Assembly (NCBI GenBank): GCA_027450205.1
Contig: DAIDJL010000004.1
Location: forward strand, 11,932-75,931
DNA: 64,000 nt
Direction of reading: 5' to 3'
From: Candidatus Parcubacteria bacterium
GTDB lineage: Bacteria > Patescibacteriota > Minisyncoccia > UBA6257 > 2-01-FULL-56-20
The notes under the pieces were generated by a model. It saw only the letters and a list, made by a program, of their open reading frames with translations, did no database searches and was not told the origin of the DNA. This document shows positions 4,871 to 49,784 of this stretch, one piece after another; position 1 is the stretch's first letter, and each line of letters starts with the position of its first letter. A program made the translations under genes and the position numbers.

Positions 4871-5014
4871 AAAAGGATTATATCAGAAATCAAAAAGACC
4901 GTTCTTTCGAACGATCTTTTTGAAAATGGTGCTTGCGGCACCACGCTAGGCTGCCACCTTGATATCCATAGTACTCGGATCTCTATGGACGTCAAGTTTA
5001 AGTTCGTGCCAACG

Positions 5015-5086
5015 TTGACCGGTGGGGAGTCGAACCCCAAACTGCCAGGTGGCAGCCTAGCCGTGATACCGTTTCACCACCGGCCC
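5015..5086 (-). tRNA. tRNA-Gly(GCC)-like gene with aberrant anticodon arm (possible pseudo-tRNA) and structured 3' trailer
   Basis: Minus-strand read GGGCCGG-TG-GTGA-AACGGTA-TCAC ... TGGGG-TTCGACT-CCCCA-CCGGTCA-A gives canonical acceptor, D and T arms. The anticodon stem CTAGG/CCTGG encloses a 6-nt loop CTGCCA containing GCC, one nucleotide short of canonical. No CCA is encoded. Confidence 0.4.
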
Positions 5087-24402: not shown

Positions 24403-25059
24403 ATGATTCCTCCCAAAGACCTTCCGCGCCTGCGCGCCCGGTGGCGCAAGATTTCCCGCACGCTTGGCAGGCTTTTTCCGCATCCCAAGATCGCGCTCAC
24501 GTACGGCAATGCGTGGGAACTGCTCGTGGCGGTTCAGCTTTCCGCGCAGTGCACGGACAAGAAAGTGAATGAGGTGACGCCCGCGCTGTTCAAAAAGTAC
24601 CGGACGCTCGACGCGTATGTGCGCGCTGGCAGGACGGCGGCCGGCGTTCGCGCGTTCGAAGCGATGGTGAAGCAGACCGGATTCTATCGCGCGAAGACGC
24701 GCAACATTCTCGCGGCGGCACGCGTGGTCAAGGAAAAGTTCGGCGGCAAACTCCCGCGCACGATGGCGGAGATGGTGACAATCCCGGGCGTCGGCCGCAA
24801 GTCGGCGAACGTCATCCTCGGCAACACCTACGGCGTGGTGGAGGGGATCGCGGTGGACACGCACGTGATGCGCCTGTCGCGCGTGCTCGGCCTCTCGCGC
24901 GAAAAGACGCCGGAGAAGATAGAGCAGGACCTGATGGCCATCATCCCGCGCAAGGATTGGTTTCGCGCCACGTACATGCTGATCGACTACGGCCGCGCCT
25001 ACTGCGTGGCACGCCCGCACAAGCACGAGCTGTGCCCGCTGACGAAAGTGGTGGGGTAG
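24403..25059 (+). CDS. nth: Endonuclease III (DNA glycosylase/AP lyase)
   Basis: HhH-GPD motif IPGVGRKSANVIL, catalytic Lys/Asp context, and C-terminal 4Fe-4S cluster C-x6-C-x2-C-x5-C (CVARPHKHELCPL). Confidence 0.9.
   Translation: MIPPKDLPRLRARWRKISRTLGRLFPHPKIALTYGNAWELLVAVQLSAQCTDKKVNEVTPALFKKYRTLDAYVRAGRTAAGVRAFEAMVKQTGFYRAKTRNILAAARVVKEKFGGKLPRTMAEMVTIPGVGRKSANVILGNTYGVVEGIAVDTHVMRLSRVLGLSREKTPEKIEQDLMAIIPRKDWFRATYMLIDYGRAYCVARPHKHELCPLTKVVG
24985..25059 (+). repeat. Direct repeat copy A (3' end of nth)
   Basis: The 72-75 nt segment GACTACGGCCGCGCCTACTGCGTGGCACGCCCGCACAAGCACGAGCTGTGCCCGCTGACGAAAGTG... is repeated at 25869-25940 with 3 mismatches over the shared ~66 nt. Confidence 0.8.
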
Positions 25060-25133
25060 GGGGAATAAAAAAAAGAAAAGCGCCGCCCTCATAAAAAGAT
25101 GGGCGGCGCATGGATATTAGTAAGGAAGAGCCA

Positions 25134-25775
25134 TTATTGTTTGTTGGCGAGAAATTCCCGGCCTTTGCCAACGGTGGTGTTTATGGGAGTGTCTGCAGCA
25201 CACAGCGGGCATTCATCCGCTTCCCAACTTTTGAGATCGATGCTAGTAAGCGAGTAGAGTTCTGGAAGAAGGCCAATGTCTCCTTCTGTCACTCCGCCGC
25301 GGTTATAGATGGCGCCAAGCCCAATGACGTTTCCGCCGAGCGCGTAGACGGCATCGAATACTTTCTTCGCCGAACCACCGGTAGTAAGGACGTCCTCGAC
25401 GATAAGGATGTTTTTGCCGGGGATGAGTTTTTCATATCCCCGTTTGATAACGAATTTATCGCCATCTTTTTCGGCATAAACCGCGAGCACGATACGACCG
25501 GAGAGCGTGGACAGCATACTTGCGGTGTGTTGCGATAGGATGATGCCGCCCTTTTCCGGTCCGACAACAACATTGACTTCGCGATCCAAAAAGTGTTGGG
25601 CGAAGTAAAGGCAGAGGTATGAGGTTTCCCTCGTGTGCGGGTAGATGGCATCCTTGTTCACATAAGCCGAACCATGCTTACCCGATGTATAGACGAAGTG
25701 ACCATCGTTGAGCACGGCACCCACTCGTCCGAGGATCTTCATTGCGTCCAACTGAATTTTTCCTTCTGCATTCAT
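25134..25775 (-). CDS. pyrE: Type I phosphoribosyltransferase, orotate phosphoribosyltransferase-like
   Basis: PRPP-binding motif ILIVEDVLTTGGS. N-terminal GHFVYTSGKHGSAYVNK resembles OPRTase. C-terminal extension with CPLC. Confidence 0.6.
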   Translation of the reverse strand: MNAEGKIQLDAMKILGRVGAVLNDGHFVYTSGKHGSAYVNKDAIYPHTRETSYLCLYFAQHFLDREVNVVVGPEKGGIILSQHTASMLSTLSGRIVLAVYAEKDGDKFVIKRGYEKLIPGKNILIVEDVLTTGGSAKKVFDAVYALGGNVIGLGAIYNRGGVTEGDIGLLPELYSLTSIDLKSWEADECPLCAADTPINTTVGKGREFLANKQ

Positions 25776-25868
25776 AAGGCATGCTTCCTTTCAAAGGGCT
25801 GTTGGGCCGGATCCCGTTTGGATTGGGCTTAGGTATGGTTTATCAGAAAAATTGCGGGATGGCAAATG

Positions 25869-25940
25869 GACTACGGCCGCGCCTACTGCGTGGCACGCCC
25901 GCACAAGCACGGGCTGTGCCCGTTGACGAAGGTGCTCTAG
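25869..25940 (+). repeat. Direct repeat copy B (duplicate of nth 3' end, encodes DYGRAYCVARPHKHGLCPLTKVL*)
   Basis: Near-identical to 24985-25059. Lies ~810 bp downstream on the far side of the pyrE-like gene. Confidence 0.8.
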
Positions 25941-25984
25941 AATCGTATCCTTGGAGTAGCAGCGCATTTCTAGGAGGGTGAAAT

Positions 25985-26422
25985 ATGATAACCGTGACGC
26001 TCTCTGGTTTGCCAGAGATGGGCGAAGATGCCAAGCGGTCGCTATTCCGCAACTGCGTGGCCGCGATATGTCTTGAAAAGGATTGGGACCTCAAGAAAAG
26101 GGATTTTATCTTTGAGTTCTCGCCGTCAACAATAATTTCCGCAAATGAGACGCATCAGATCAACGTTGTCGTCCATGGCTTTCCTATAAAGCCCAGAGAT
26201 GGAAGGATTCGCAACCTCTTTGCGCACGTGCTTGGAACCAAGCTCCGAGAATGGTATCCAGACATTTTTATCCGGGTTCGTGTGCCAAAGGTCGATTCCG
26301 AGGAAGGATTTTGGAGTTCAGATCGAAAGCCAAATCCCTATCAGGCGGTTCGTGAGCTCGAGCGCATGCTCGGACCGAAGGCGGGCGTCGGAGACGAGTG
26401 CCTCGACTATCGGCGTTACTAA
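25985..26422 (+). CDS. Hypothetical protein (145 aa), lower-GC segment
   Basis: ORF with a GGAGGG RBS-like sequence upstream. No family recognised. Confidence 0.4.
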   Translation: MITVTLSGLPEMGEDAKRSLFRNCVAAICLEKDWDLKKRDFIFEFSPSTIISANETHQINVVVHGFPIKPRDGRIRNLFAHVLGTKLREWYPDIFIRVRVPKVDSEEGFWSSDRKPNPYQAVRELERMLGPKAGVGDECLDYRRY

Positions 26423-26540
26423 TTTATCGGGCCATCAATAAACGATCTGGGGAGCGAAAGCCCCCCCGATTTTTCTATGATCAATATAGAGTCGTATTTA
26501 CGGTCTTTATTCGTACATTAACATGTGTTAATATACGAAT

Positions 26541-26795
26541 ATGAAAAAAGATTTCTATTCAACAGCCGAAGTTGCCCAGATATTGAACCTAAGCCGGGTT
26601 TCTGTTTTTAATAGGATCAAAAAGGGGAAGATCAAAGCCACTAAGGTTGGGCGTAATTTTATCGTTACCCACGACGAGCTTCTGGAAGCATTAGGCGATA
26701 AAATCGGTCCGGCAAAAAAAGCACAGATCGAGAAAGCCATCAATCGGGCCATGAAGGATTATAAAGAAGTTTTTGAGAAACTTGCCAAGGAATGA
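26541..26795 (+). CDS. Excisionase/AlpA-family helix-turn-helix DNA-binding protein
   Basis: HTH_17-type motif YSTAEVAQILNLSRVSVFNRIKKGKIKATKVGRNFIV. Short basic protein. Confidence 0.65.
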   Translation: MKKDFYSTAEVAQILNLSRVSVFNRIKKGKIKATKVGRNFIVTHDELLEALGDKIGPAKKAQIEKAINRAMKDYKEVFEKLAKE

Positions 26796-26957
26796 GACCT
26801 AAGCCGATTACCATCGCGGAGGTCGAATATACACGCATTTCTGTTGGCACATACGGTTGATTTCTAAAGTCGTCTGGCCAATATCCCTTCGGGATATCCC
26901 CATTTTGACACCGTCAAAAGTGTGCTAAAATGGATATTGTTAGTTAGAAGAAAGGCC

Positions 26958-27003
26958 GCTTTCCGGTGTGAGGCTGGAACGCGGTTTTTCGTTTTTTTTG
27001 ACT
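26958..27003 (+). terminator. Intrinsic terminator upstream of uvrB promoter
   Basis: Stem CCGCTTTCC ... GGAACGCGG followed by TTTTTCGTTTTTTTT. Then TTGACT-17nt-TAAACT, a promoter-like pair. Confidence 0.55.
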
Positions 27004-27099: not shown

Positions 27100-29226
27100 A
27101 TGAACCACTTCGAGATCATATCCGACAACAAACCCGCGGGGGACCAGCCGAAGGCGATCGCATCGCTCGTTTCGGGGTTGCGCTCCGGCCTGCGCGACCA
27201 GACCCTGCTCGGCGTCACCGGCTCCGGCAAGACCTTCACGATGGCGAACGTGATCCAGCAGATCGGCAAGCCGACGCTCGTGATCGCGCACAACAAGACG
27301 CTCGCCGCGCAGCTCTGCAACGAGTTTCGCGAGCTTTTCCCGAACGCATCCGTCAATTATTTCGTTTCGTACTACGACTACTATCAGCCGGAGGCGTACA
27401 TCCCGACGAGCGACACCTATATAGACAAGGAGGCGCTGATCAACGACGAGATCGACAAGCTGCGCCACGCGGCCACGATGGCTCTTCTTACGCGGCGCGA
27501 CGTGATCATCGTGGCGTCAGTGTCGTGCATCTACGGCCTCGGCGCGCCGGAGGAGTACGCCAAGAACATCGTGCACTTCAAGGTGGGCGACGCGGTGAAC
27601 CGCCATGAGTTTTCGCGCAAGCTTGTTTCGCTGCAGTTCAACCGCACGACCGCGGACCTCAAGCGCGCCACGTACCGCCTGCGCGGCGAGAACTGGGAGA
27701 TCATGCCGGCGGATCGCGAGGTCATCTATAACCTGGAGGTGTCGGGCGGCGTGATCCGCGCCATCTATGAAGTGGATCCGGTGAAGGGGTTTCAGCCGGG
27801 CAAGACGCCGGCGATCCCGGATATTTTATTCGCGCCGGCGAAGCACTTTATTACCGAGCCGGCCTCGCGCGAACGTGCCATCAACGATATTAAAATTGAA
27901 TTAAAAGAACAGCTCGCCAAGTTTGACCGCGAGAAGAAGTTCCTGGAAGCCGAGCGGCTGGAGCGGCGCACCAAGTTCGATCTCGCGATGATGGCGGAGG
28001 TGGGATACTGCCACGGCATCGAGAACTATTCGCGCCATCTTTCCGGGCGCGCCGCGGGCGAGCCGCCGGCCACTTTGCTTGATTACTTCCCGCACAAACC
28101 GGCCGCAGCGGGCGCTGATGCCGGCACGCCGGACTTTCTCACCATCATCGACGAGTCGCACATGACCGTGCCGCAGCTGCAGGGCATGTTCAACGGCGAC
28201 GCCGCGCGCAAGAAGACGCTCGTGGAATACGGATTCCGTTTGCCGTCCGCGATCGATAACCGGCCGTTGCGGTTTGAGGAATTCGACGCGCGCATCGGCC
28301 AGGTCATCTACACGTCCGCCACGCCGGGGCCGTACGAGTTGAAAGTGAGCAGGCCGGCGCCTGCGGGAGCCCCCCGCCAGGACGGGGGCCAGATAGTAGA
28401 GCAGATCATCCGCCCCACCGGCCTCGTCGATCCGAAGATCACGGTCAAGCCCGCGCGCGGGCAGGTGGAGGACCTGATCCCGCGCATCGAGGAGCGCGTG
28501 GCCAAGCACGAGCGCGTGCTCGTGACGACGCTCACCAAGCGTATGGCCGAGGACCTCTCGGCGTATCTGGAAGAGCGAAAAATAAAAGTGAACTATCTGC
28601 ACAGCGATGTGAAGACGATGGATCGCATCAAGATCCTTACCGACCTGCGCAAGGGGAAGATCGAAGTGCTCGTCGGCGTGAACTTGCTCCGCGAAGGTCT
28701 CGACCTGCCGGAGGTTTCCTTGGTCGCCATTTTGGATGCGGATAAGGAAGGATTTCTGCGCAGCGAGGTTTCTTTGATCCAAACGATCGGCCGCGCGGCG
28801 CGCAACGTGGAAGGCGAAGTACTGATGTACGCGGACAACATCACCGGTTCCATCGAGCGCGCCATGCGCGAAACCGATCGTCGCCGCACGATCCAGCTGG
28901 CGTACAACAAAAAGCACGACATCACGCCGCGCACCGTCGTGCGTAAGATCTCGGACATCCTGCCGGATATTGACGATATCCTGAAGCTGGAGACGGCGCC
29001 GGTGCCGCGGTCCAAGACCGCGCTGCAGCGGCTGATCGCGGAGAAGGAGCGCGAGATGAAGCTTGCCGCGAAGGAGCTCAACTTCGAGCTCGCGGGAATA
29101 TTGCGCGATGAGATCCGTGAGCTGAACAAAAAGGCGGGGGCGGTGGAGGAGGTGATGAAGGCGGGGCGGAAGGAGACATTGGACGCCGCGCATGCCGCGG
29201 GGTTGTCGCAAAAAAAGAAAAGATAA
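27100..29226 (+). CDS. uvrB: Excinuclease ABC subunit B
   Basis: Walker A GVTGSGKT, beta-hairpin region, helicase motifs and a C-terminal UvrB/UvrC interaction helix. Full-length conservation. Confidence 0.95.
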   Translation: MNHFEIISDNKPAGDQPKAIASLVSGLRSGLRDQTLLGVTGSGKTFTMANVIQQIGKPTLVIAHNKTLAAQLCNEFRELFPNASVNYFVSYYDYYQPEAYIPTSDTYIDKEALINDEIDKLRHAATMALLTRRDVIIVASVSCIYGLGAPEEYAKNIVHFKVGDAVNRHEFSRKLVSLQFNRTTADLKRATYRLRGENWEIMPADREVIYNLEVSGGVIRAIYEVDPVKGFQPGKTPAIPDILFAPAKHFITEPASRERAINDIKIELKEQLAKFDREKKFLEAERLERRTKFDLAMMAEVGYCHGIENYSRHLSGRAAGEPPATLLDYFPHKPAAAGADAGTPDFLTIIDESHMTVPQLQGMFNGDAARKKTLVEYGFRLPSAIDNRPLRFEEFDARIGQVIYTSATPGPYELKVSRPAPAGAPRQDGGQIVEQIIRPTGLVDPKITVKPARGQVEDLIPRIEERVAKHERVLVTTLTKRMAEDLSAYLEERKIKVNYLHSDVKTMDRIKILTDLRKGKIEVLVGVNLLREGLDLPEVSLVAILDADKEGFLRSEVSLIQTIGRAARNVEGEVLMYADNITGSIERAMRETDRRRTIQLAYNKKHDITPRTVVRKISDILPDIDDILKLETAPVPRSKTALQRLIAEKEREMKLAAKELNFELAGILRDEIRELNKKAGAVEEVMKAGRKETLDAAHAAGLSQKKKR

Positions 29227-29316: not shown

Positions 29317-30588
29317 TTATTGGGGGGCGAACGCTGCGATATCGGCACCTACCTGGGAATCGGCGTTGGTCCATGACCATTTGGGATTGACGCTGTTATT
29401 TGCCGAATCAATGAGATAAGCCATATCGGCGAACTCTCCATTGCCTGCTCCGGTCTGCGGATCCAGGATCGTAAATCCGGAATCTATCGCTTGACCGGCG
29501 GGATTGTGTGTATAGATGGCAAGGAAGCCGGAAACTATCAGCTCGCCGGTCCTGGCGGGAGTGATAGGCCCGGAATTGAGGGAGGTCACCGTGGCGTCGG
29601 TTCCGGTGCCGTTTTGTGTATCGAACACTGCGGAGGTGGTCATTGTCCCGCTCCATGCACTCGCCAATATCGTTGGATAGGAACCGTTTGCCGTGAATGT
29701 CTGGGTTGGGCTTGTGGTAGGATTGTAACAATAAAAGATGGTTATAAATCGGTTGTTGCCTCCGTCCTGGTATGACGTCAAGCCGTGCCATGTATTACCT
29801 TGGGAGTCGGTAGGAGCAGGAGGCGCAGTTTGATAGTTTGCGACCACGGCGATGAGCAGGGTCGCTCCCGTGGTGTTGATGGCCGGAGTGGTGGCGGAAC
29901 TTCCTGAATTGGTAGCGTATGTGTGGGAAATGAGCGCTATTGATGCGTTGCCGCCGCCAAAATCTATCGGGGCCAACGTAAGGCTCGATCCTTTCTCTAA
30001 AATATCGGCATACCTTCCTCCGTCGGTCTGACCTGTAGCCTGAAATTTAGTGGATTCCATCTTGGCGGTCAGCTCGTAAGAAGAGCCATTCGCTTCGTAG
30101 GTATAGTAAAGTCCGGTGGAGGAATTGTTGCTCGGGTCTATAGGGAGGCTCCCCAGAGGGGATCCCATTGACAAGGAGGAGAAATTTATCGGGATCCATC
30201 CCGCTCCATTTGTGCTGCGATAATTTTGCGGGGAGGAACACTGATAGGAATAGCCCGCAGGAAGGGAGGGGAGACCAAGGGACGAGCAGGTTGACGTTTG
30301 ATTTCCCGATAGGGTTGGATCGGGCAGAGAAACGTAGACCAAGGAGGCGGTGCCCATCGTATATCCGGCGCTTCCTTCCTGATCTTCCTGATAGAGGGAA
30401 ATGGCCCGGGTGATGGTGTTGAGGTCGGAAACGCGGTTCGCGTCGCGGGCTTGCTTCAAAAGTTCTGCGGGGTTCAAAACCAGCACCACGACGACTGCGA
30501 GGACCGCAATAATGGCGATGACAACCAGGAGTTCGATAAGGGTGAACCCTCGAAAACTCCGCCCCGGCGAGGGGATATGATCATTCAT
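29317..30588 (-). CDS. Type IV pilin-like protein with large C-terminal domain (prepilin N-terminal methylation motif)
   Basis: Class III signal MNDHIPSPGRSFRG|FTLIELLVVIAIIAVLA. The 400-aa mature region is Thr/Ser/Gly-rich and beta-rich. Confidence 0.75.
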   Translation of the reverse strand: MNDHIPSPGRSFRGFTLIELLVVIAIIAVLAVVVVLVLNPAELLKQARDANRVSDLNTITRAISLYQEDQEGSAGYTMGTASLVYVSLPDPTLSGNQTSTCSSLGLPSLPAGYSYQCSSPQNYRSTNGAGWIPINFSSLSMGSPLGSLPIDPSNNSSTGLYYTYEANGSSYELTAKMESTKFQATGQTDGGRYADILEKGSSLTLAPIDFGGGNASIALISHTYATNSGSSATTPAINTTGATLLIAVVANYQTAPPAPTDSQGNTWHGLTSYQDGGNNRFITIFYCYNPTTSPTQTFTANGSYPTILASAWSGTMTTSAVFDTQNGTGTDATVTSLNSGPITPARTGELIVSGFLAIYTHNPAGQAIDSGFTILDPQTGAGNGEFADMAYLIDSANNSVNPKWSWTNADSQVGADIAAFAPQ

Positions 30589-39078: not shown

Positions 39079-42000
39079 ATGAGGCAACGATTTCTATCCA
39101 GTCGCATAGCCCATTTTGTTCTGTCTGGAGCCGCCACTTTGCTTGGCGGTTTTCTTTTTCTTCTTCCATCAGCGCAGGCAAGCACCATAAACGTTATAAG
39201 TAATATTACGACGAGTACAACATGGGTTGCGAGTAATGTGTACGTTTTTAATAACAACCTGATCGCAATTCAGTCCGGGGTTACCCTTACCATCGCAAGC
39301 GGTACTGTTGTGAAATTTAACGGCACATCTTCAGGATTGACGGTTGACGGTACATTGCAAGCTAATGGCGCAGCCGGAAATCAAATTTATTTTACTTCCG
39401 TTAATGACAATTCAGTGGGTGGGACTATTAGTGGATCGACAGGGAGTCCGGCCGCTGGTAATTGGGCCGATATCGGGATTGCTTCAGGGGGTATCGCAAA
39501 TATAACCGACGCAGTGGTTCGCTATGGGGGATCTTCAAGCGGGGGGTCTGCGGATATCAATCAGTCCGGCGGGGTGCTTACTGTTTCAAGCACGCAAATA
39601 GCGACAAGTACGTTATATGGTTTGTATATATCTGCCGGAACCAGTACGGTTGAAACGAGCACGTTTACCACAAATGGTTTTTATGGATTCTATGAGACCG
39701 GCTCTGCCTCGCTCACTCTCACGAGCAGCACGTTTTCTCAAAACGACTTCACGGGTTATGTTAATTTTGGAAGCGGCGCTACGTTTATCCCTTCTGGAAA
39801 TTCCGCTTCTGAAAATATTACCGAAAACGGTTATGACATTTTAGGAACCCTTACCAAAAACGAGACATTATATGATGACGGTGTTCCTTATGTCATTGGC
39901 TATAACAATGGCGTTGGGGTCACTATTGCACCAGGGACGTCTCTGACTATCAATCCCGGTACGATTATAAAATTTCTTAAAGTCAGCTCCGCTGCTTATA
40001 TTGATGTAAAAGGCATCCTCAATGTTCAAGGAACATTAACCAACCCAGTATATTTTACCTCGATCAAAGACAACTCTGTTGATTCTGGGACGGGGGGGAG
40101 CACTACATCCACCCCGGGCTTGGGCGATTGGGGAAGTATTGAAATTGATCCCGGGGCAAGTACAACGATTATGAATGCTATCATTCGTTATGGTGGTGCT
40201 ACAGGGTCTGCATATTACAATTCTGCCGATATCGACATAGCGGGAGGCGTTTCATCACTCTCTTCTGTAACGGTGGCATCGAGTAGTAATTATGGTATTC
40301 AATCCACCGCTGGAACGATAACTATTTCAAGTAGCACCATCAGTAGTAATGGGGCATCGGGAATCTACGCATATAGCTCATCCGGCACTATTAATATTTC
40401 GAGTAGCACTTTCGCTAATAACGGTGTTGATGCGGCATTGATTAATTTTACGAGCGCCGTTACCTTTGTTCCTTTAGGGAATACTGCGTCAGGTAATGGC
40501 GAGAATGGGTATGATATCCGCGGGACGTTAAGCACGAACGAGACTTTATACAATGACGGCATTCCTTACGTTATTGGCTATAACAATAATGATGGTGTCA
40601 CTGTTGCCTCAGGGACCACACTTACCATCAGTAGTGGAACGGTCATAAAGTTCTTGCATCAGACTACGGCGTCGTTTCTGGATATAAAGGGACGCTTAAA
40701 TGTTCAGGGAACACCAACCAACAAAGTTTATTTTACCTCAATTAAGGACAACTCAATCGATCCCGGTACTGGCGGGAGCACTACGTCTACTCCAGGTCCT
40801 GGCGATTGGGGACGTATTGAAATTGATTCTGGTGCAAGCACAACAATCAACAATGCTTTCATTGGGTACGGCGGCTATTCCTTGACTCCCGCGACCGATA
40901 TTTACCAAGCGGGAGGTGTTTCAACTATCATTAATTCGCAGATCGCTGATAGTTTAGATGATGGCATCAATATAAACGGAGGAACATCGACTATTACACT
41001 CTCCGAATTTAATGGCAATGGGCATGGTGGAATTTATATGAATGGCGGGATGATCACGATTTCAACAAGCAGCATCCAGGGAAACGTCACTTACGGAATG
41101 TACAACGGTGATAATGTTACTTCCACCGCCATTGCCGAAAATAATTGGTGGGGATCAACAACTGGCCCGACGAATGCCGCGAATCCTGGAGGCACAGGCG
41201 ATGTGGCGTCATCATATGTTGATTTTAATAACTGGCTCAATTATTCTCCGGTAAACGGAACTACAACTTTAAGTAATCTTATGCAGTATAAATCGGATGC
41301 GACAACAACGCTTAGCGAGGGGAGCTCTACCACCGAATCAATTATAGTGTTCGGTGCAAAACTGCAATCATTAGCTACAAGTACAGAAAGCCTTCAAGTG
41401 GAAGTTGAACCAGTGGGTACTATGTTTACCAATACCGTTACCGTATCCAGCACTTATGTGGTTCCCGGAAGCAATGCGACGGCAACATTCCCACTTGTGG
41501 ATACTCGCGAGATCAGCGGAAATGGAAGCTATCATTGGCAGGCGAGGGTAACTGATCAATTGGGAGATACTTCCGGATGGCAATTGTTTGGGCCGAACTC
41601 AAGCTCTACTGATTTCAAAATTAGTGCGGTGCCACTTTATACACAGGTCACGTCGACCTACCCTTCGCCTTCTGCAACTACGGGGACTGTCTGGTGGGCA
41701 CCTCAATTATTAGATGGTATCGCCACAAATACTATCGCCGGCTTCGGCTGCTTAATTACATCTGTGACGATGGACCTTCGATCGTATGGGATAACAACCA
41801 CTACAATGCAAAGTTATATGAGTAGTACCGATGTTAATCCTGCGAACTTAAATGATTGGCTTGAGATGGCAAATAGTTCTGGTACGGGTTATTTCCCGGC
41901 GGGAAGTGGTCTTATGAATTGGCAGGACATCCCTTACTATTCCGAAACTCCATCAGGCACGTTTAGAGTTTGGTATAACGTTACTACCGATCATATATCT

Positions 42001-42633
42001 TCACCTTCAAGCACATGGGTTAATAAATGGCTTGATTATACTTCAACGGGAACGGTGCCAGTAATTTTAACCGAAGGAAATATTTCCGGTGTGACTCATT
42101 TTGTAGTGGCAACGGGATTCGCTAATAACAATAATACTTCGACCTATACCTTACGCGATCCATTCTTTTATAACACTCAATATTTGAATCAAGCATCATC
42201 AACAGCAAATCATATTTATGGATATGCCAATACCTATGCGAGTGCAAATATTCTCGAGCCGACTTCTACCGCTGTTTTGCCTCTTTACCTCGAATATACT
42301 ATTGATAGCATGCACACACTTTTGATCACTGATCCGAATGGAAATAAACTTGGCATAAATTTAGGCACCGGCGTTGAATATAATCAGATACCAGATGCAG
42401 CAGAGGACGATAGTCAGCCGGGCGTTCGTTTTCTTACTATTTACCATCCAATAGATGGAAATTATACGTTAAGTATTGGAGGGTCTGGGAAATATGAGTT
42501 ATCAAGTTTCGTAGCTGATGGGAAGCATATGCCTATTCCGCAGATAATTTCATCAACTACACCATCTTCGGCCGCTGCGATATATCATCAAGATTATAAT
42601 TCTTTGAATCTTTCAGCTAGCACAGTCCAGTAA
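39079..42633 (+). CDS. Giant secreted beta-helix repeat protein (1184 aa) with three tandem ~200-aa modules and a C-terminal Cys/His/Asp-containing domain
   Basis: Signal peptide ...FLFLLPSAQAS. Three near-identical modules each contain GT(V/I)IKFL, YFTSIKDNS, GDWG.IEI, IRYGG and ENGYDI.GTL..NETLY.DG.PYVIGYNN. A Thr/Ser-rich tail carries GFGCLIT ... GVTHFVVATGF ... TLRDP, suggesting a papain-like triad. The GC content is markedly low for this window. Confidence 0.7.
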   Translation: MRQRFLSSRIAHFVLSGAATLLGGFLFLLPSAQASTINVISNITTSTTWVASNVYVFNNNLIAIQSGVTLTIASGTVVKFNGTSSGLTVDGTLQANGAAGNQIYFTSVNDNSVGGTISGSTGSPAAGNWADIGIASGGIANITDAVVRYGGSSSGGSADINQSGGVLTVSSTQIATSTLYGLYISAGTSTVETSTFTTNGFYGFYETGSASLTLTSSTFSQNDFTGYVNFGSGATFIPSGNSASENITENGYDILGTLTKNETLYDDGVPYVIGYNNGVGVTIAPGTSLTINPGTIIKFLKVSSAAYIDVKGILNVQGTLTNPVYFTSIKDNSVDSGTGGSTTSTPGLGDWGSIEIDPGASTTIMNAIIRYGGATGSAYYNSADIDIAGGVSSLSSVTVASSSNYGIQSTAGTITISSSTISSNGASGIYAYSSSGTINISSSTFANNGVDAALINFTSAVTFVPLGNTASGNGENGYDIRGTLSTNETLYNDGIPYVIGYNNNDGVTVASGTTLTISSGTVIKFLHQTTASFLDIKGRLNVQGTPTNKVYFTSIKDNSIDPGTGGSTTSTPGPGDWGRIEIDSGASTTINNAFIGYGGYSLTPATDIYQAGGVSTIINSQIADSLDDGININGGTSTITLSEFNGNGHGGIYMNGGMITISTSSIQGNVTYGMYNGDNVTSTAIAENNWWGSTTGPTNAANPGGTGDVASSYVDFNNWLNYSPVNGTTTLSNLMQYKSDATTTLSEGSSTTESIIVFGAKLQSLATSTESLQVEVEPVGTMFTNTVTVSSTYVVPGSNATATFPLVDTREISGNGSYHWQARVTDQLGDTSGWQLFGPNSSSTDFKISAVPLYTQVTSTYPSPSATTGTVWWAPQLLDGIATNTIAGFGCLITSVTMDLRSYGITTTTMQSYMSSTDVNPANLNDWLEMANSSGTGYFPAGSGLMNWQDIPYYSETPSGTFRVWYNVTTDHISSPSSTWVNKWLDYTSTGTVPVILTEGNISGVTHFVVATGFANNNNTSTYTLRDPFFYNTQYLNQASSTANHIYGYANTYASANILEPTSTAVLPLYLEYTIDSMHTLLITDPNGNKLGINLGTGVEYNQIPDAAEDDSQPGVRFLTIYHPIDGNYTLSIGGSGKYELSSFVADGKHMPIPQIISSTTPSSAAAIYHQDYNSLNLSASTVQ

Positions 42634-47706: not shown

Positions 47707-48312
47707 TTAATTCCTTCTATCAAGCGCCGAGCCAAGCGTCTCGTCGTCCGCGAATTCGATCTCGCCGCCGGTAGGAAGGCCGCGCCCAAGCCGGCTGATC
47801 TTTTTGCCGAGCGGCGCGAGCTCTTTCAGCAGGAGCGACGCTTGGAAGTCCCCGAGCGTCGTCGGGTTGAAGCCGAGGATGATCTCGTCGGCCGCGCCAC
47901 CCAGCTCATCCGCGATATATTTCTTTAAGCTAAGAAGCCGCGTTTTTTGCCATGCCTCCAAGAATCCCGTCTTCGGCACGGGGCCGACGATGAAGTAGCG
48001 CCCGGTGAACTTTTTTGTGTTCTCAAGTGAAAGATAATCCGTCTCTTTTTCCACCACCATGATGACGCGCTGATTCCGTGCCGGGTTCATGCAGACGTCG
48101 CACAGTGCGCCCGCGTTCTGATGGATGAAAAAACATCGCTCGCAGATCTTGATCGCGCGCAGGGCGTCGATGCTCTGCGCAAGCACGCGCAGATCTTCTT
48201 TTGGCCGTCCGATCAGGTAGAACGCAAGCCGCACCGCCTGCCGCGGCCCGATGGATGGCAGCTCCGCGAGCGCATCCACCACCTTTTGCACCGGCTCGGG
48301 GAGTTTCATCAT
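47707..48312 (-). CDS. recR: Recombination protein RecR
   Basis: HhH motif LPSIGPRQAVRLAFYL, C4 zinc finger CERCFF...C..C, Toprim domain and Walker-B-like tail. Confidence 0.9.
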   Translation of the reverse strand: MMKLPEPVQKVVDALAELPSIGPRQAVRLAFYLIGRPKEDLRVLAQSIDALRAIKICERCFFIHQNAGALCDVCMNPARNQRVIMVVEKETDYLSLENTKKFTGRYFIVGPVPKTGFLEAWQKTRLLSLKKYIADELGGAADEIILGFNPTTLGDFQASLLLKELAPLGKKISRLGRGLPTGGEIEFADDETLGSALDRRN

Positions 48313-48929
48313 GAGTTTTTTTGAGCTTCCTGTTTAATCATTGCAATAATCTCGGGAAATTTCGATATATTGAAATGTCCATTCTTACTCTTATAAATTG
48401 TGATACGGGCATTATTTAATTTCTTTCGATACTTCTCAGCATGAATAACAGGCACGACATTATCATCTTTTGAAAAAAGAAGATGAAGATATTTACAGTT
48501 TTTTTCCATAAGCGAGAGGTTAGCTTTCAATTTAAACCCGCCAACGAGGTCTTCGGTCGGGGTCGTATCATCGTAAGGCGGTGCGATTAAATACACGGAT
48601 ATTGCTTTCTTGGGCAGTTTATTTTCGGAGAGATATTTTGCAAGAAAAATACCACCCAGAGATGAGCCAATTAAGATATAGCGACTTTTTAGAAGAGGTA
48701 TATATTTTTTAAAAACAATCTTCCAATCTCTATATTTTGCATTATCTTGAAGTGGCATGCGCGGCCCGATGACTTCAAATTTCTTACCCAACTTTTTTTC
48801 TAAATAATCACCTGTCCAATACCTTTTTTTCTTAGTTGACACTTTCTTTGTGCGAAGGTAATGCAAATAATCCTTGTCATTTTTAAAAGTCATCCCGCCA
48901 TGTATCGTTAGCACCTGAATCTGTTTCAT
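48309..48929 (-). CDS. Alpha/beta-fold serine hydrolase (RBBP9/YdeN-like), low-GC gene
   Basis: Nucleophile elbow GSSLGG, with downstream Asp and His (NGHFNI). AT-rich codon usage, unlike the flanks. Confidence 0.55.
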   Translation of the reverse strand: MKQIQVLTIHGGMTFKNDKDYLHYLRTKKVSTKKKRYWTGDYLEKKLGKKFEVIGPRMPLQDNAKYRDWKIVFKKYIPLLKSRYILIGSSLGGIFLAKYLSENKLPKKAISVYLIAPPYDDTTPTEDLVGGFKLKANLSLMEKNCKYLHLLFSKDDNVVPVIHAEKYRKKLNNARITIYKSKNGHFNISKFPEIIAMIKQEAQKNS

Positions 48930-48987
48930 TACGTGCTTTTATTATCACTCTATTTTTCGCCTTAAGCAATTTTTACCCGGCGGCCGA

Positions 48988-49629
48988 TTAATTCTGACTT
49001 AAGGGGATTGCGACCTCCTCGAGTAATGACGCCTTCTTCATGCCGTCTTCTTTTCCATACCAAAAGACGGTCACGCTTGAAACGGTTATATCCTTACTTT
49101 CGATCGCTTTGAGATTTCTTTGAGACTCCGCGATATCGGCCTGTGGCTTATCAAAATCAATTTCGCCGAGCGTGATATGCGGATCGAACACTTCTTCTGG
49201 AACATGATATGCCTGCAAACTTTGGCGGCTACCGTCAGTGTGAATTCCTTGGCTTTCCAATCTCTTTTGGATTTTTTCAGATATGAATGGGCTGCGATAA
49301 GGAATGGCCAGCGCTGATACTATATCGTGCAGTTTCTGCAACTGTTGCTTATTGGAGACATCCATAATGTAAAGATTCCGATGTCGATCATTCTCGACTC
49401 TTATTTTCGGCGCAAGAAGTGAAACGGTAAATGGTTTTATAGAAAGTCCGCGAAGTTTTTCTAATAGCTTTGGATATCCATCAGATGTATAGCTATCGAG
49501 ATAGAGCGTAATATGCGGCTCCGACTTATAACTACTTCCATACTCGGAAATAAAACGCTGCTTCTCCTGCCAAAGCACATTTGTAATGTTATCCGGGAAA
49601 GTTATACGAATGCTGATATCGTATCTCAT
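48988..49629 (-). CDS. 2H-phosphoesterase superfamily protein (LigT/2'-5' RNA ligase-like)
   Basis: Two H-x-T-x motifs (EPHITLYL and DPHITLGE) at the expected spacing. Confidence 0.6.
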   Translation of the reverse strand: MRYDISIRITFPDNITNVLWQEKQRFISEYGSSYKSEPHITLYLDSYTSDGYPKLLEKLRGLSIKPFTVSLLAPKIRVENDRHRNLYIMDVSNKQQLQKLHDIVSALAIPYRSPFISEKIQKRLESQGIHTDGSRQSLQAYHVPEEVFDPHITLGEIDFDKPQADIAESQRNLKAIESKDITVSSVTVFWYGKEDGMKKASLLEEVAIPLSQN

Positions 49630-49658: not shown

Positions 49659-49784
49659 GGCATTATGAGGCATACAAATTTGTCCCGAGGGGAATCGCGG
49701 AGCCGCGTAGGCGGCGAGCGTTAGGGCGCATTCAGCAGAATGCGACCCGTCCCCGAAGGACATGTTTGTATGCCTCATAATGCC
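49659..49784. repeat. Hairpin-flanked structured repeat, copy 2 (perfect 20-bp inverted arms around the conserved core; distal arm overlaps dnaB stop codon)
   Basis: Arms GGCATTATGAGGCATACAAA / TTTGTATGCCTCATAATGCC. The core CGGAGCCGCGTAGGCGGCGAGCGTTAGGGCGCATTCAGCAGAATGCGACCCG aligns with copy 1. Confidence 0.6.

Follow-up and report, generated by a model that had tools for sequence, protein, structure and literature searches.

In a 64,000-nucleotide window of a Candidatus Parcubacteria genome (contig DAIDJL010000004.1 of assembly GCA_027450205.1), the 3′ end of nth, the gene for endonuclease III, is present twice, and the two copies bracket a single opposite-strand gene, a predicted orotate phosphoribosyltransferase (pyrE) gene that relatives do not carry at this position. 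Directly observed here are the duplication, the insertion relative to related loci, what the cargo gene is, and a matching nth layout in two further Patescibacteria. To account for them we propose, with a confidence only a little better than even, that DNA from outside, bearing pyrE together with a segment resembling the 3′ end of nth, entered the end of nth by recombination in the style of Campbell integration.

The target gene is full length (24403..25059, + strand; 218 amino acids (aa); PF00730 and PF00633), and its product aligns from end to end, through the stop codon, with those of relatives at 70-89% aa identity, scoring 203 bits against TIGR01083, just below the cutoff of 211.7. Among 5.8 billion proteins its nearest neighbours come from metagenome-assembled genomes (MAGs) of the Paceibacterota (Patescibacteria/candidate phyla radiation, CPR), the best full-length match being 89% identical. 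Copy A of the repeat (24982..25052, +) comprises the last ~70 nucleotides (nt) of the gene before its final two codons and stop, where the protein C-terminus reads ...IDYGRAYCVARPHKHELCPLTKVVG-stop, with ...DYGRAYCVARPHKHELCPLTKVVG-stop as its final residues. Copy B (25866..25940, +) is an orphan nth 3′ fragment that remains in frame as (M)DYGRAYCVARPHKHGLCPLTKVL-stop. A repeat search aligned 24982-25050 with 25866-25934 (69 nt, 94% identity, start-to-start spacing 884 nt), and within this alignment an exact block of 42 nt (24985-25026 = 25869-25910) stands against 0 matches expected from 100 shuffles; the pair is the sole high-identity repeat of its kind within the 64-kb window. An earlier note, made from the letters of this DNA, had described a ~70 bp repeat with three mismatches, recurring ~810 bp downstream and encoding a stop-terminated duplicate peptide, and our measurements agree with it on each point: three mismatches fall within 24985-25050, the gap separating the copies is 815 nt, and copy B runs in frame to its stop.

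We compared the locus with 112 nth-bearing loci (designated here by L numbers), made up of 80 taken from more than 583 GTDB matches, 26 from a metagenome scan with a YGRAYCVARPHKH-coding pattern and 7 from protein look-up, less L102, whose contig holds only the last 45 Nth codons. About 50 of the 112 belong to the same clade, with Nth identities of 70-93% and a gene order of atp operon, ogt, Gmad2, a HATPase-like gene, nth, uvrB and uvrA. The right-hand boundary of the interval in question is set by uvrB (27100..29226, +; 87-98% aa identity to relatives, a range that includes partial matches on short contigs), which always lies downstream of nth. Between the two genes the clade carries 0-2 small genes of varying content: homologues of orf145, the first gene right of copy B in our window, in L087, L091, L120 and L121; orthologues of a helix-turn-helix (HTH) gene, the second, in L086 and L088; and a pilin-like gene in L001. 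The interval is otherwise 'empty' in L098, L104, L117-L119, L122 and L123, in which a conserved ~105-nt element begins no more than about 10 nt from the stop codon of nth, L119 having in addition one small open reading frame (ORF) between this element and uvrB.

Neither pyrE nor a second nth end was found between nth and uvrB in any of the ~50 clade relatives, and since these relatives keep the synteny, pyrE together with copy B is, as judged from this comparison, an insertion specific to this genome. The earlier note had named the same interval comparison as its check and had considered that the repeat-bracketed arrangement might be ancestral; no such arrangement appears in these relatives. 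To the right of copy B, the leader motif GAGTAGCAG..CATTT..GGTGA..ATG shows homology to the spacer that separates nth from orf145 in L087 and L091, so that copy B occupies the place that the nth end takes in these relatives.

The only gene between the repeats is the pyrE-like gene (25134..25775, - strand; 213 aa), which passes the cutoff for PF00156 and whose best NCBIfam match is TIGR01367 pyrE_Therm (130.4 bits, under the cutoff of 150.25); that a single minus-strand pyrE-like phosphoribosyltransferase (PRTase) gene is bracketed had been read correctly before. It is accompanied by an intrinsic terminator (25063..25110, -), in which a hairpin of GCGCCGCCC/GGGCGGCGC precedes a U-run (ViennaRNA fold -23.4 kcal/mol), and by a 90-nt upstream region (25776..25865, -) that carries the Shine-Dalgarno-like GAAAGGAAG and forms the right inner flank of the insert. 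The closest homologue of the encoded protein (78% aa identity) is found in GCA_036510525, whose Nth (83% aa) also makes it the closest relative within GTDB, and there pyrE lies directly after pyrF and beside pyrD. The next homologue (75%) likewise follows pyrF, an analogous GC hairpin with a T-run accompanies pyrE of a relative, and the pyrE orthologues of relatives stand in pyrF-pyrE operons elsewhere in the genome. On these similarities the window PRTase is a predicted pyrE orthologue, a housekeeping-type gene and not an element gene.

The composition of pyrE bears on where it came from. Its GC content at third codon positions (GC3) is 0.57, where nth and uvrB reach 0.85 and 0.83, and lies below that of most core genes called in the window (0.69-0.85). 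In the relative, the corresponding gap is small (0.67 vs 0.75). These values point to import of pyrE from a related, lower-GC lineage rather than to a move that was purely internal. A tblastn search for a pyrF remnant upstream of pyrE found none, neither pyrF nor pyrD is present in the window, pyrF has no match on the 319,946-bp contig, and the 90-nt pyrE leader resembles neither pyrF nor any of the loci fetched. A PRTase-family gene also lies immediately upstream of nth in L022 (9416-9820), an unrelated Patescibacteria MAG; it shares 25% aa identity with the window pyrE, and its position next to nth is probably coincidental.

The proposed event would have placed a ~0.8-kb module, consisting of pyrE, its own terminator and the 90-nt leader, at the nth 3′ end by recombination through an nth-3′-homologous segment on the incoming DNA, a Campbell-type insertion like that of e14 at icd. 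The incoming DNA would then have carried its own nth end, so that nth was kept intact and an orphan copy of its last ~70 nt remained beyond the insert. The enzyme may have been a site-specific recombinase, either lost or acting in trans, in which case the locus would be a remnant like those of cis-mobilizable elements (CIMEs), or it may have been RecA acting on DNA taken up from related, lower-GC Paceibacterota. Copy B would now also supply the predicted -35 box (TTGACG) of the orf145 promoter; a consensus scan places this promoter-like site, TTGACG-17-TATCCT, at 25923..25951 (+), with the -35 box within copy B.

Support for a second, distinct nth end comes from the distribution of differences between the copies. 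These fall at positions 3, 47, 58, 66, 70 and 72 of 72, positions 4-46 being identical, such that the mismatches, beyond a perfect block of 43 nt, are bunched in the final 26 nt (roughly p = 0.02-0.04 under a uniform spread). The resulting mosaic, perfect in its left block and ~15% diverged in its right, is better explained by a crossover between two distinct nth ends, homogenised near the crossover, than by uniform decay. In relatives, nth ends ...AAG GTG CTG GGG TAG GGG. Copy A ends AAA GTG GTG GGG TAG GGGG, its native-type tail GTGGGGTAGGGG resembling the CTGGGGTAGGGG tail of the relatives, and it is slightly nearer to the closest relative, L087, than copy B is. Copy B ends AAG GTG CTC TAG and passes directly into the orf145 leader, ~45-60 nt of tail and spacer being gone; it retains the AAG GTG CT state found in most relatives, and its homology to their nth genes extends to 25936.

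The same layout recurs at nth in two other lineages. L032 (10594-11923), from a Candidatus Colwellbacteria genome, presents nth, a Fic gene on the - strand and then a ~120-nt nth fragment, whose stop lies at the same codon position as in the intact nth. L026 (1212-1862) presents nth, a toxin-antitoxin-like DUF2283/DUF4258 pair on the - strand and then a ~80-nt nth fragment, whose left boundary falls at the same Asp-Tyr codons as that of the window copy, which begins at codon D195. Left boundaries at Asp-Tyr codons are therefore shared by two of the three modules, and the cargo is antisense to nth in all three. Between the two copies in L032, 13 codons differ synonymously and 4 non-synonymously, and this predominance of synonymous change suggests that both were once the ends of functional nth genes. 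In a screen of 2142 ORFs of at least 120 aa over 1.37 Mb, from which L032 was left out because of Ns, nth was the only real gene with a high-identity, same-strand duplication of a terminal fragment; with our window set aside, such duplications occur in 2 of ~104 nth genes and in 0 of ~1000 other genes. Repeats near nth in L059, L066 and L046 proved to be tandem pilin paralogues or non-coding repeats, and not gene-end duplications.

A bolder reading of this recurrence is that the nth 3′ end serves Patescibacteria as a dedicated attachment site for very small recombinase-less cassettes (pyrE, Fic, toxin-antitoxin pairs), each provided with a spare nth end. We regard this as speculative and improbable. 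Such cassettes would travel by means of a trans-acting recombinase not yet recognised, or by DNA uptake, single-crossover RecA recombination and loop-out, and if the idea were true it would amount to an integron-like trade in genes, one at a time, among organisms whose genomes are tiny and contain few classical mobile elements.

Several observations weigh against a recombination of incoming DNA into nth, and they are collected here. No tyrosine or serine recombinase was found in the window ORFs tested, and near the 112 nth loci the only candidate was a XerD-like gene in L023. The earlier note had suggested looking for an integrase, and that search returned none: Pfam gave no recombinase or transposase domain in 29 window ORFs, and phmmer and hmmsearch, seeded with XerD, lambda Int, IntE and PinE, gave no recombinase in the window. 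Extended to 3845 ORF segments of at least 100 aa from the window and the 112 nth loci, a census that reached ~10 kb either side of nth with few seeds, the search yielded the L023 gene, which is not at an insertion. Nor was a free attP-like nth fragment or module copy found in viral contigs, searched by pattern and by protein, or in plasmid and phage collections, searched by blastn. Nth-pyrE adjacency, as a donor would need, is seen in no relative. We also sought a backbone shared among the three nth-bracketed modules and found none; their inner flanks have no sequence in common, and the modules therefore offer no evidence for one element family. At the level of the repeat, a GCA codon common to copies A and B is seen in none of ~40 relatives, and this shared codon, with the native-looking tail of copy A, fits a duplication in situ unless gene conversion homogenised the left block. 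The core differences between the window copies (2 synonymous, 1 non-synonymous) are too few to judge selection, and the genome is a database singleton.

The alternative that fares best is an in-situ rearrangement that needs no mobile DNA. In it, an error of replication or repair (template switching, or the mending of a break at the 3′ end of nth) copied pyrE from elsewhere in the same genome or population; synthesis then restarted within nth, ~70 nt upstream, and so created the duplication, copy B having decayed since. We consider this unlikely, while recognizing what it explains well. The lineage-specific GCA codon and the native-type tail GGGGTAGGGG of copy A follow naturally from it, as does the closeness of pyrE to the clade's own gene (78% aa to the nearest relative, vs 83% for Nth). 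It requires no recombinase, and none was found; the ~45-60 nt of native tail and spacer missing right of copy B suggest a messy event. It is less comfortable with the clustering of the A/B mismatches, which decay should have spread, and with a pyrE that is compositionally atypical for the genome. An accident of repair also gives no reason for the same layout to arise specifically at nth in two unrelated lineages, in one of which, L032, the copies diverged mainly at synonymous sites as former functional ends.

The genes beyond copy B bear on a larger alternative, along the lines that the earlier note had favoured: that ~25060-27000 is a degraded integrative element whose integrase was lost and whose excisionase is the HTH gene. 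The first of these genes, which that note did not report, is orf145 (25985..26422, +), an ORF for a hypothetical protein of 145 aa that matches nothing in Pfam, NCBIfam or PHROG; the nth-uvrB interval holds homologues of it in L087 (48% aa), L091 and L120/L121 (37%). The second encodes an excisionase-family HTH protein of 84 aa (26541..26795, +) and begins 600 nt past copy B, as had been estimated. It matches PF12728 (HTH_17), exceeds the cutoff of the TIGR01764 'excise' model (31.0 vs 28.8 bits) and matches PHROG excisionase families. The excisionase domain is thus present, but a location inside an attachment-site (att)-flanked element beside an integrase is not: the HTH gene, like orf145, falls beyond the repeats, and it has no integrase nearby. 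Orthologues of the HTH gene (79-86% aa) stand directly after nth in L086 and L088, both of which lack the repeat and pyrE, and their GC3 is equally low (0.37-0.44).

A larger element of this kind is therefore doubtful, and we assign it a low probability. It would account for the excisionase-type protein, for a GC content below that of the flanks across 25060-27000, and for the differing content of the interval among relatives. Against it stand the position of both genes outside the repeats, the HTH orthologues of the same low GC3 in repeat-free loci, the residence of orf145 homologues in L087, L091 and L120, and the failure to find an integrase. A local alignment against shuffled controls detected no third, decayed nth remnant right of copy B or left of nth, on which basis tandem accretion that takes in orf145 and the HTH gene was also rejected. 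Given orthologues after nth in repeat-free relatives, the HTH gene and orf145 are better viewed as resident variable genes than as parts of an element. The lower-GC stretch reported at 25985-26800 is real, GC dropping to 0.41-0.51 over 25950-27000, but the equally low GC3 of the orthologues identifies it as resident variable content outside the bracketed unit. The footprint of integration at nth, a duplicate 3′ end flanking DNA absent from relatives, consequently survives from the earlier interpretation, while its integrase was not found and the HTH gene no longer speaks for a degraded element.

The strong terminator said to close the low-GC stretch at 26800 also exists, but as a hairpin at about 26956-26999, within a separately conserved unit (26892..26999, +). 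This unit combines a near-perfect promoter (TTGACA-17-TAAAAT, 26906-26934) with a short hairpin-terminated transcript of ~65 nt, consisting of AUAUUGUUAGUUAGAAGAAAG, a 17-bp hairpin and a U-run. It is 85-95% identical at the nucleotide level in at least 12 relatives, whose nth DNA is only 73-89% identical, and it always lies between nth and uvrB, abutting the nth stop in 'empty' relatives. No Rfam family corresponds to it; possible identities are a small RNA and a leader/attenuator of uvrB. By synteny, nth-uvrB is a hypervariable interval, and the HTH gene, orf145 and the conserved hairpin unit form part of its ordinary content.

Least probable is an assembly artefact, in which the MAG assembly followed a chimeric route across strain variants and falsely joined nth, pyrE and an nth fragment. 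In favour of it, the 319,946-bp MAG-type contig comes from a single record with no independent assembly, the four locus proteins are all database singletons, and the closest relative has 89% Nth identity. Against it, the copies differ at 5-6 positions and each has its own flanking sequence to left and right, the contig that contains the structure measures 320 kb, and the junction at the left of copy B, where the pyrE leader meets nth codon D195, could not arise simply by collapsing two strain variants; analogous structures also occur in the independent assemblies of L032 and L026.

The duplicated part of nth was earlier described as the Fe-S cluster region. The region is indeed homologous to the [4Fe-4S] loop, although only two of the four cysteines are kept. 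The canonical endonuclease III cluster motif is C-x6-C-x2-C-x5-C. In the window (24982-25059 region), and likewise in relatives, the corresponding loop follows C-x6-H-x2-C-x5-V/L, the window's own reading being C-x6-H-x2-C-x5-V. These substitutions suggest that the CPR Nth proteins concerned may lack the canonical Fe-S cluster. The Nth loop of L026 and L046 reads C-x6-C-x2-H.

A further gene interrupts the same repair-gene cluster. Between uvrB and uvrA, on the minus strand, lies a gene (29317-30588) whose 423-aa pilin-like product bears an N-terminal methylation motif; in L117-L121, uvrB and uvrA overlap with nothing in between. By this comparison it is a second opposite-strand insertion in the cluster, and no flanking repeat was detected at it. 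Elsewhere in the window, a 1184-aa ORF (39079-42633) contains an internal tandem duplication at 39822-40874 (678-nt period; blocks of 153 and 194 nt; 72-76% identity). Two adjacent minus-strand genes at 48309-49629, encoding a serine-hydrolase-like protein and a 2′-5′ RNA ligase/LigT-like protein, have a GC3 of 0.35-0.43, well under that of their neighbours, and possibly represent another acquired patch; a 35-nt inverted repeat at 49659-49784 adjoins them. A tRNA-like gene at 5014-5086 (-) has no assignable anticodon by ARAGORN and a weak Rfam tRNA score of 35.8 bits.

CPR bacteria have small genomes, and how they gain genes is little known. The locus described here presents a pyrE outside its usual pyrF-pyrE operon, as a single-gene module in the end of a repair gene, with a prophage-type scar and no recombinase. 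As similar scars exist at nth in L032 and L026, the insertion point may be a reusable one, and if a wider survey agrees, such scars would be simple marks of recent gene gain in these uncultured bacteria. The locus also carries a caution for annotation, as an excisionase-type HTH gene near a repeat is not proof of a mobile element. A literature search returned nothing relevant on nth as an integration target or on integrative elements of Patescibacteria.

Of the known systems that leave direct repeats around an insert, transposons and insertion sequences (ISs) resemble this locus only in that repeats of the target flank the insert. Their target-site duplications measure ~2-15 nt, whereas the repeat here is ~70 nt (80-120 nt in the other lineages). 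A repeat search found no inverted repeats at the insert ends, no transposase domain is present, and we reject this reading. Integrase-free hotspots, in which DNA that has been taken up adds genes through homologous recombination or through homology-facilitated illegitimate recombination, resemble the interval as a whole: 0-2 varying small genes (orf145, HTH, pilin-like or none) between conserved core flanks, with no recombinase. Plain double-crossover exchange at such hotspots does not duplicate a flanking gene, however, and nth 3′ duplications seen three times are not its expected by-product.

CIMEs are att-flanked, integrase-less derivatives of integrative and conjugative or integrative and mobilizable elements, described in streptococci. 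They share with the pyrE module a small cargo, direct repeats of a gene 3′ end and the lack of recombination and transfer genes of their own. CIMEs also share att sites with a cognate integrase-bearing element, and here none was found at or near nth in the 112 loci; att-type repeats without recombination and transfer genes are thus present, and the cognate element is not seen.

A parallel is provided by e14 and phage 21 at the icd gene of E. coli, with its icdC pseudogene. In both cases a housekeeping protein gene has received the insert at its 3′ end, the gene is kept intact by a substitute 3′ end, and an orphan fragment marks the far end. The degree of divergence is also comparable: icd and icdC are identical at 153 of 165 nt (93%, 12 differences), compared with about 94% for the nth copies, and the e14/icd copies of E. 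coli K-12 differ by 9 synonymous and 2 non-synonymous changes, compared with 13 and 4 in L032. The element e14 differs in its size of 15 kb and in encoding intE and xisE next to the att site, while the module described here is 0.8 kb, carries a single metabolic gene and has no integrase or excisionase inside its repeats. Measured against integrative elements in general, the locus therefore has the repeat-flanked insert, the intact gene and the empty site in relatives, and lacks the internal recombinase. It belongs to a known type, an insertion scar at a gene 3′ end, here in a CPR genome and with housekeeping cargo; the one mildly surprising feature is the recurrence at nth.

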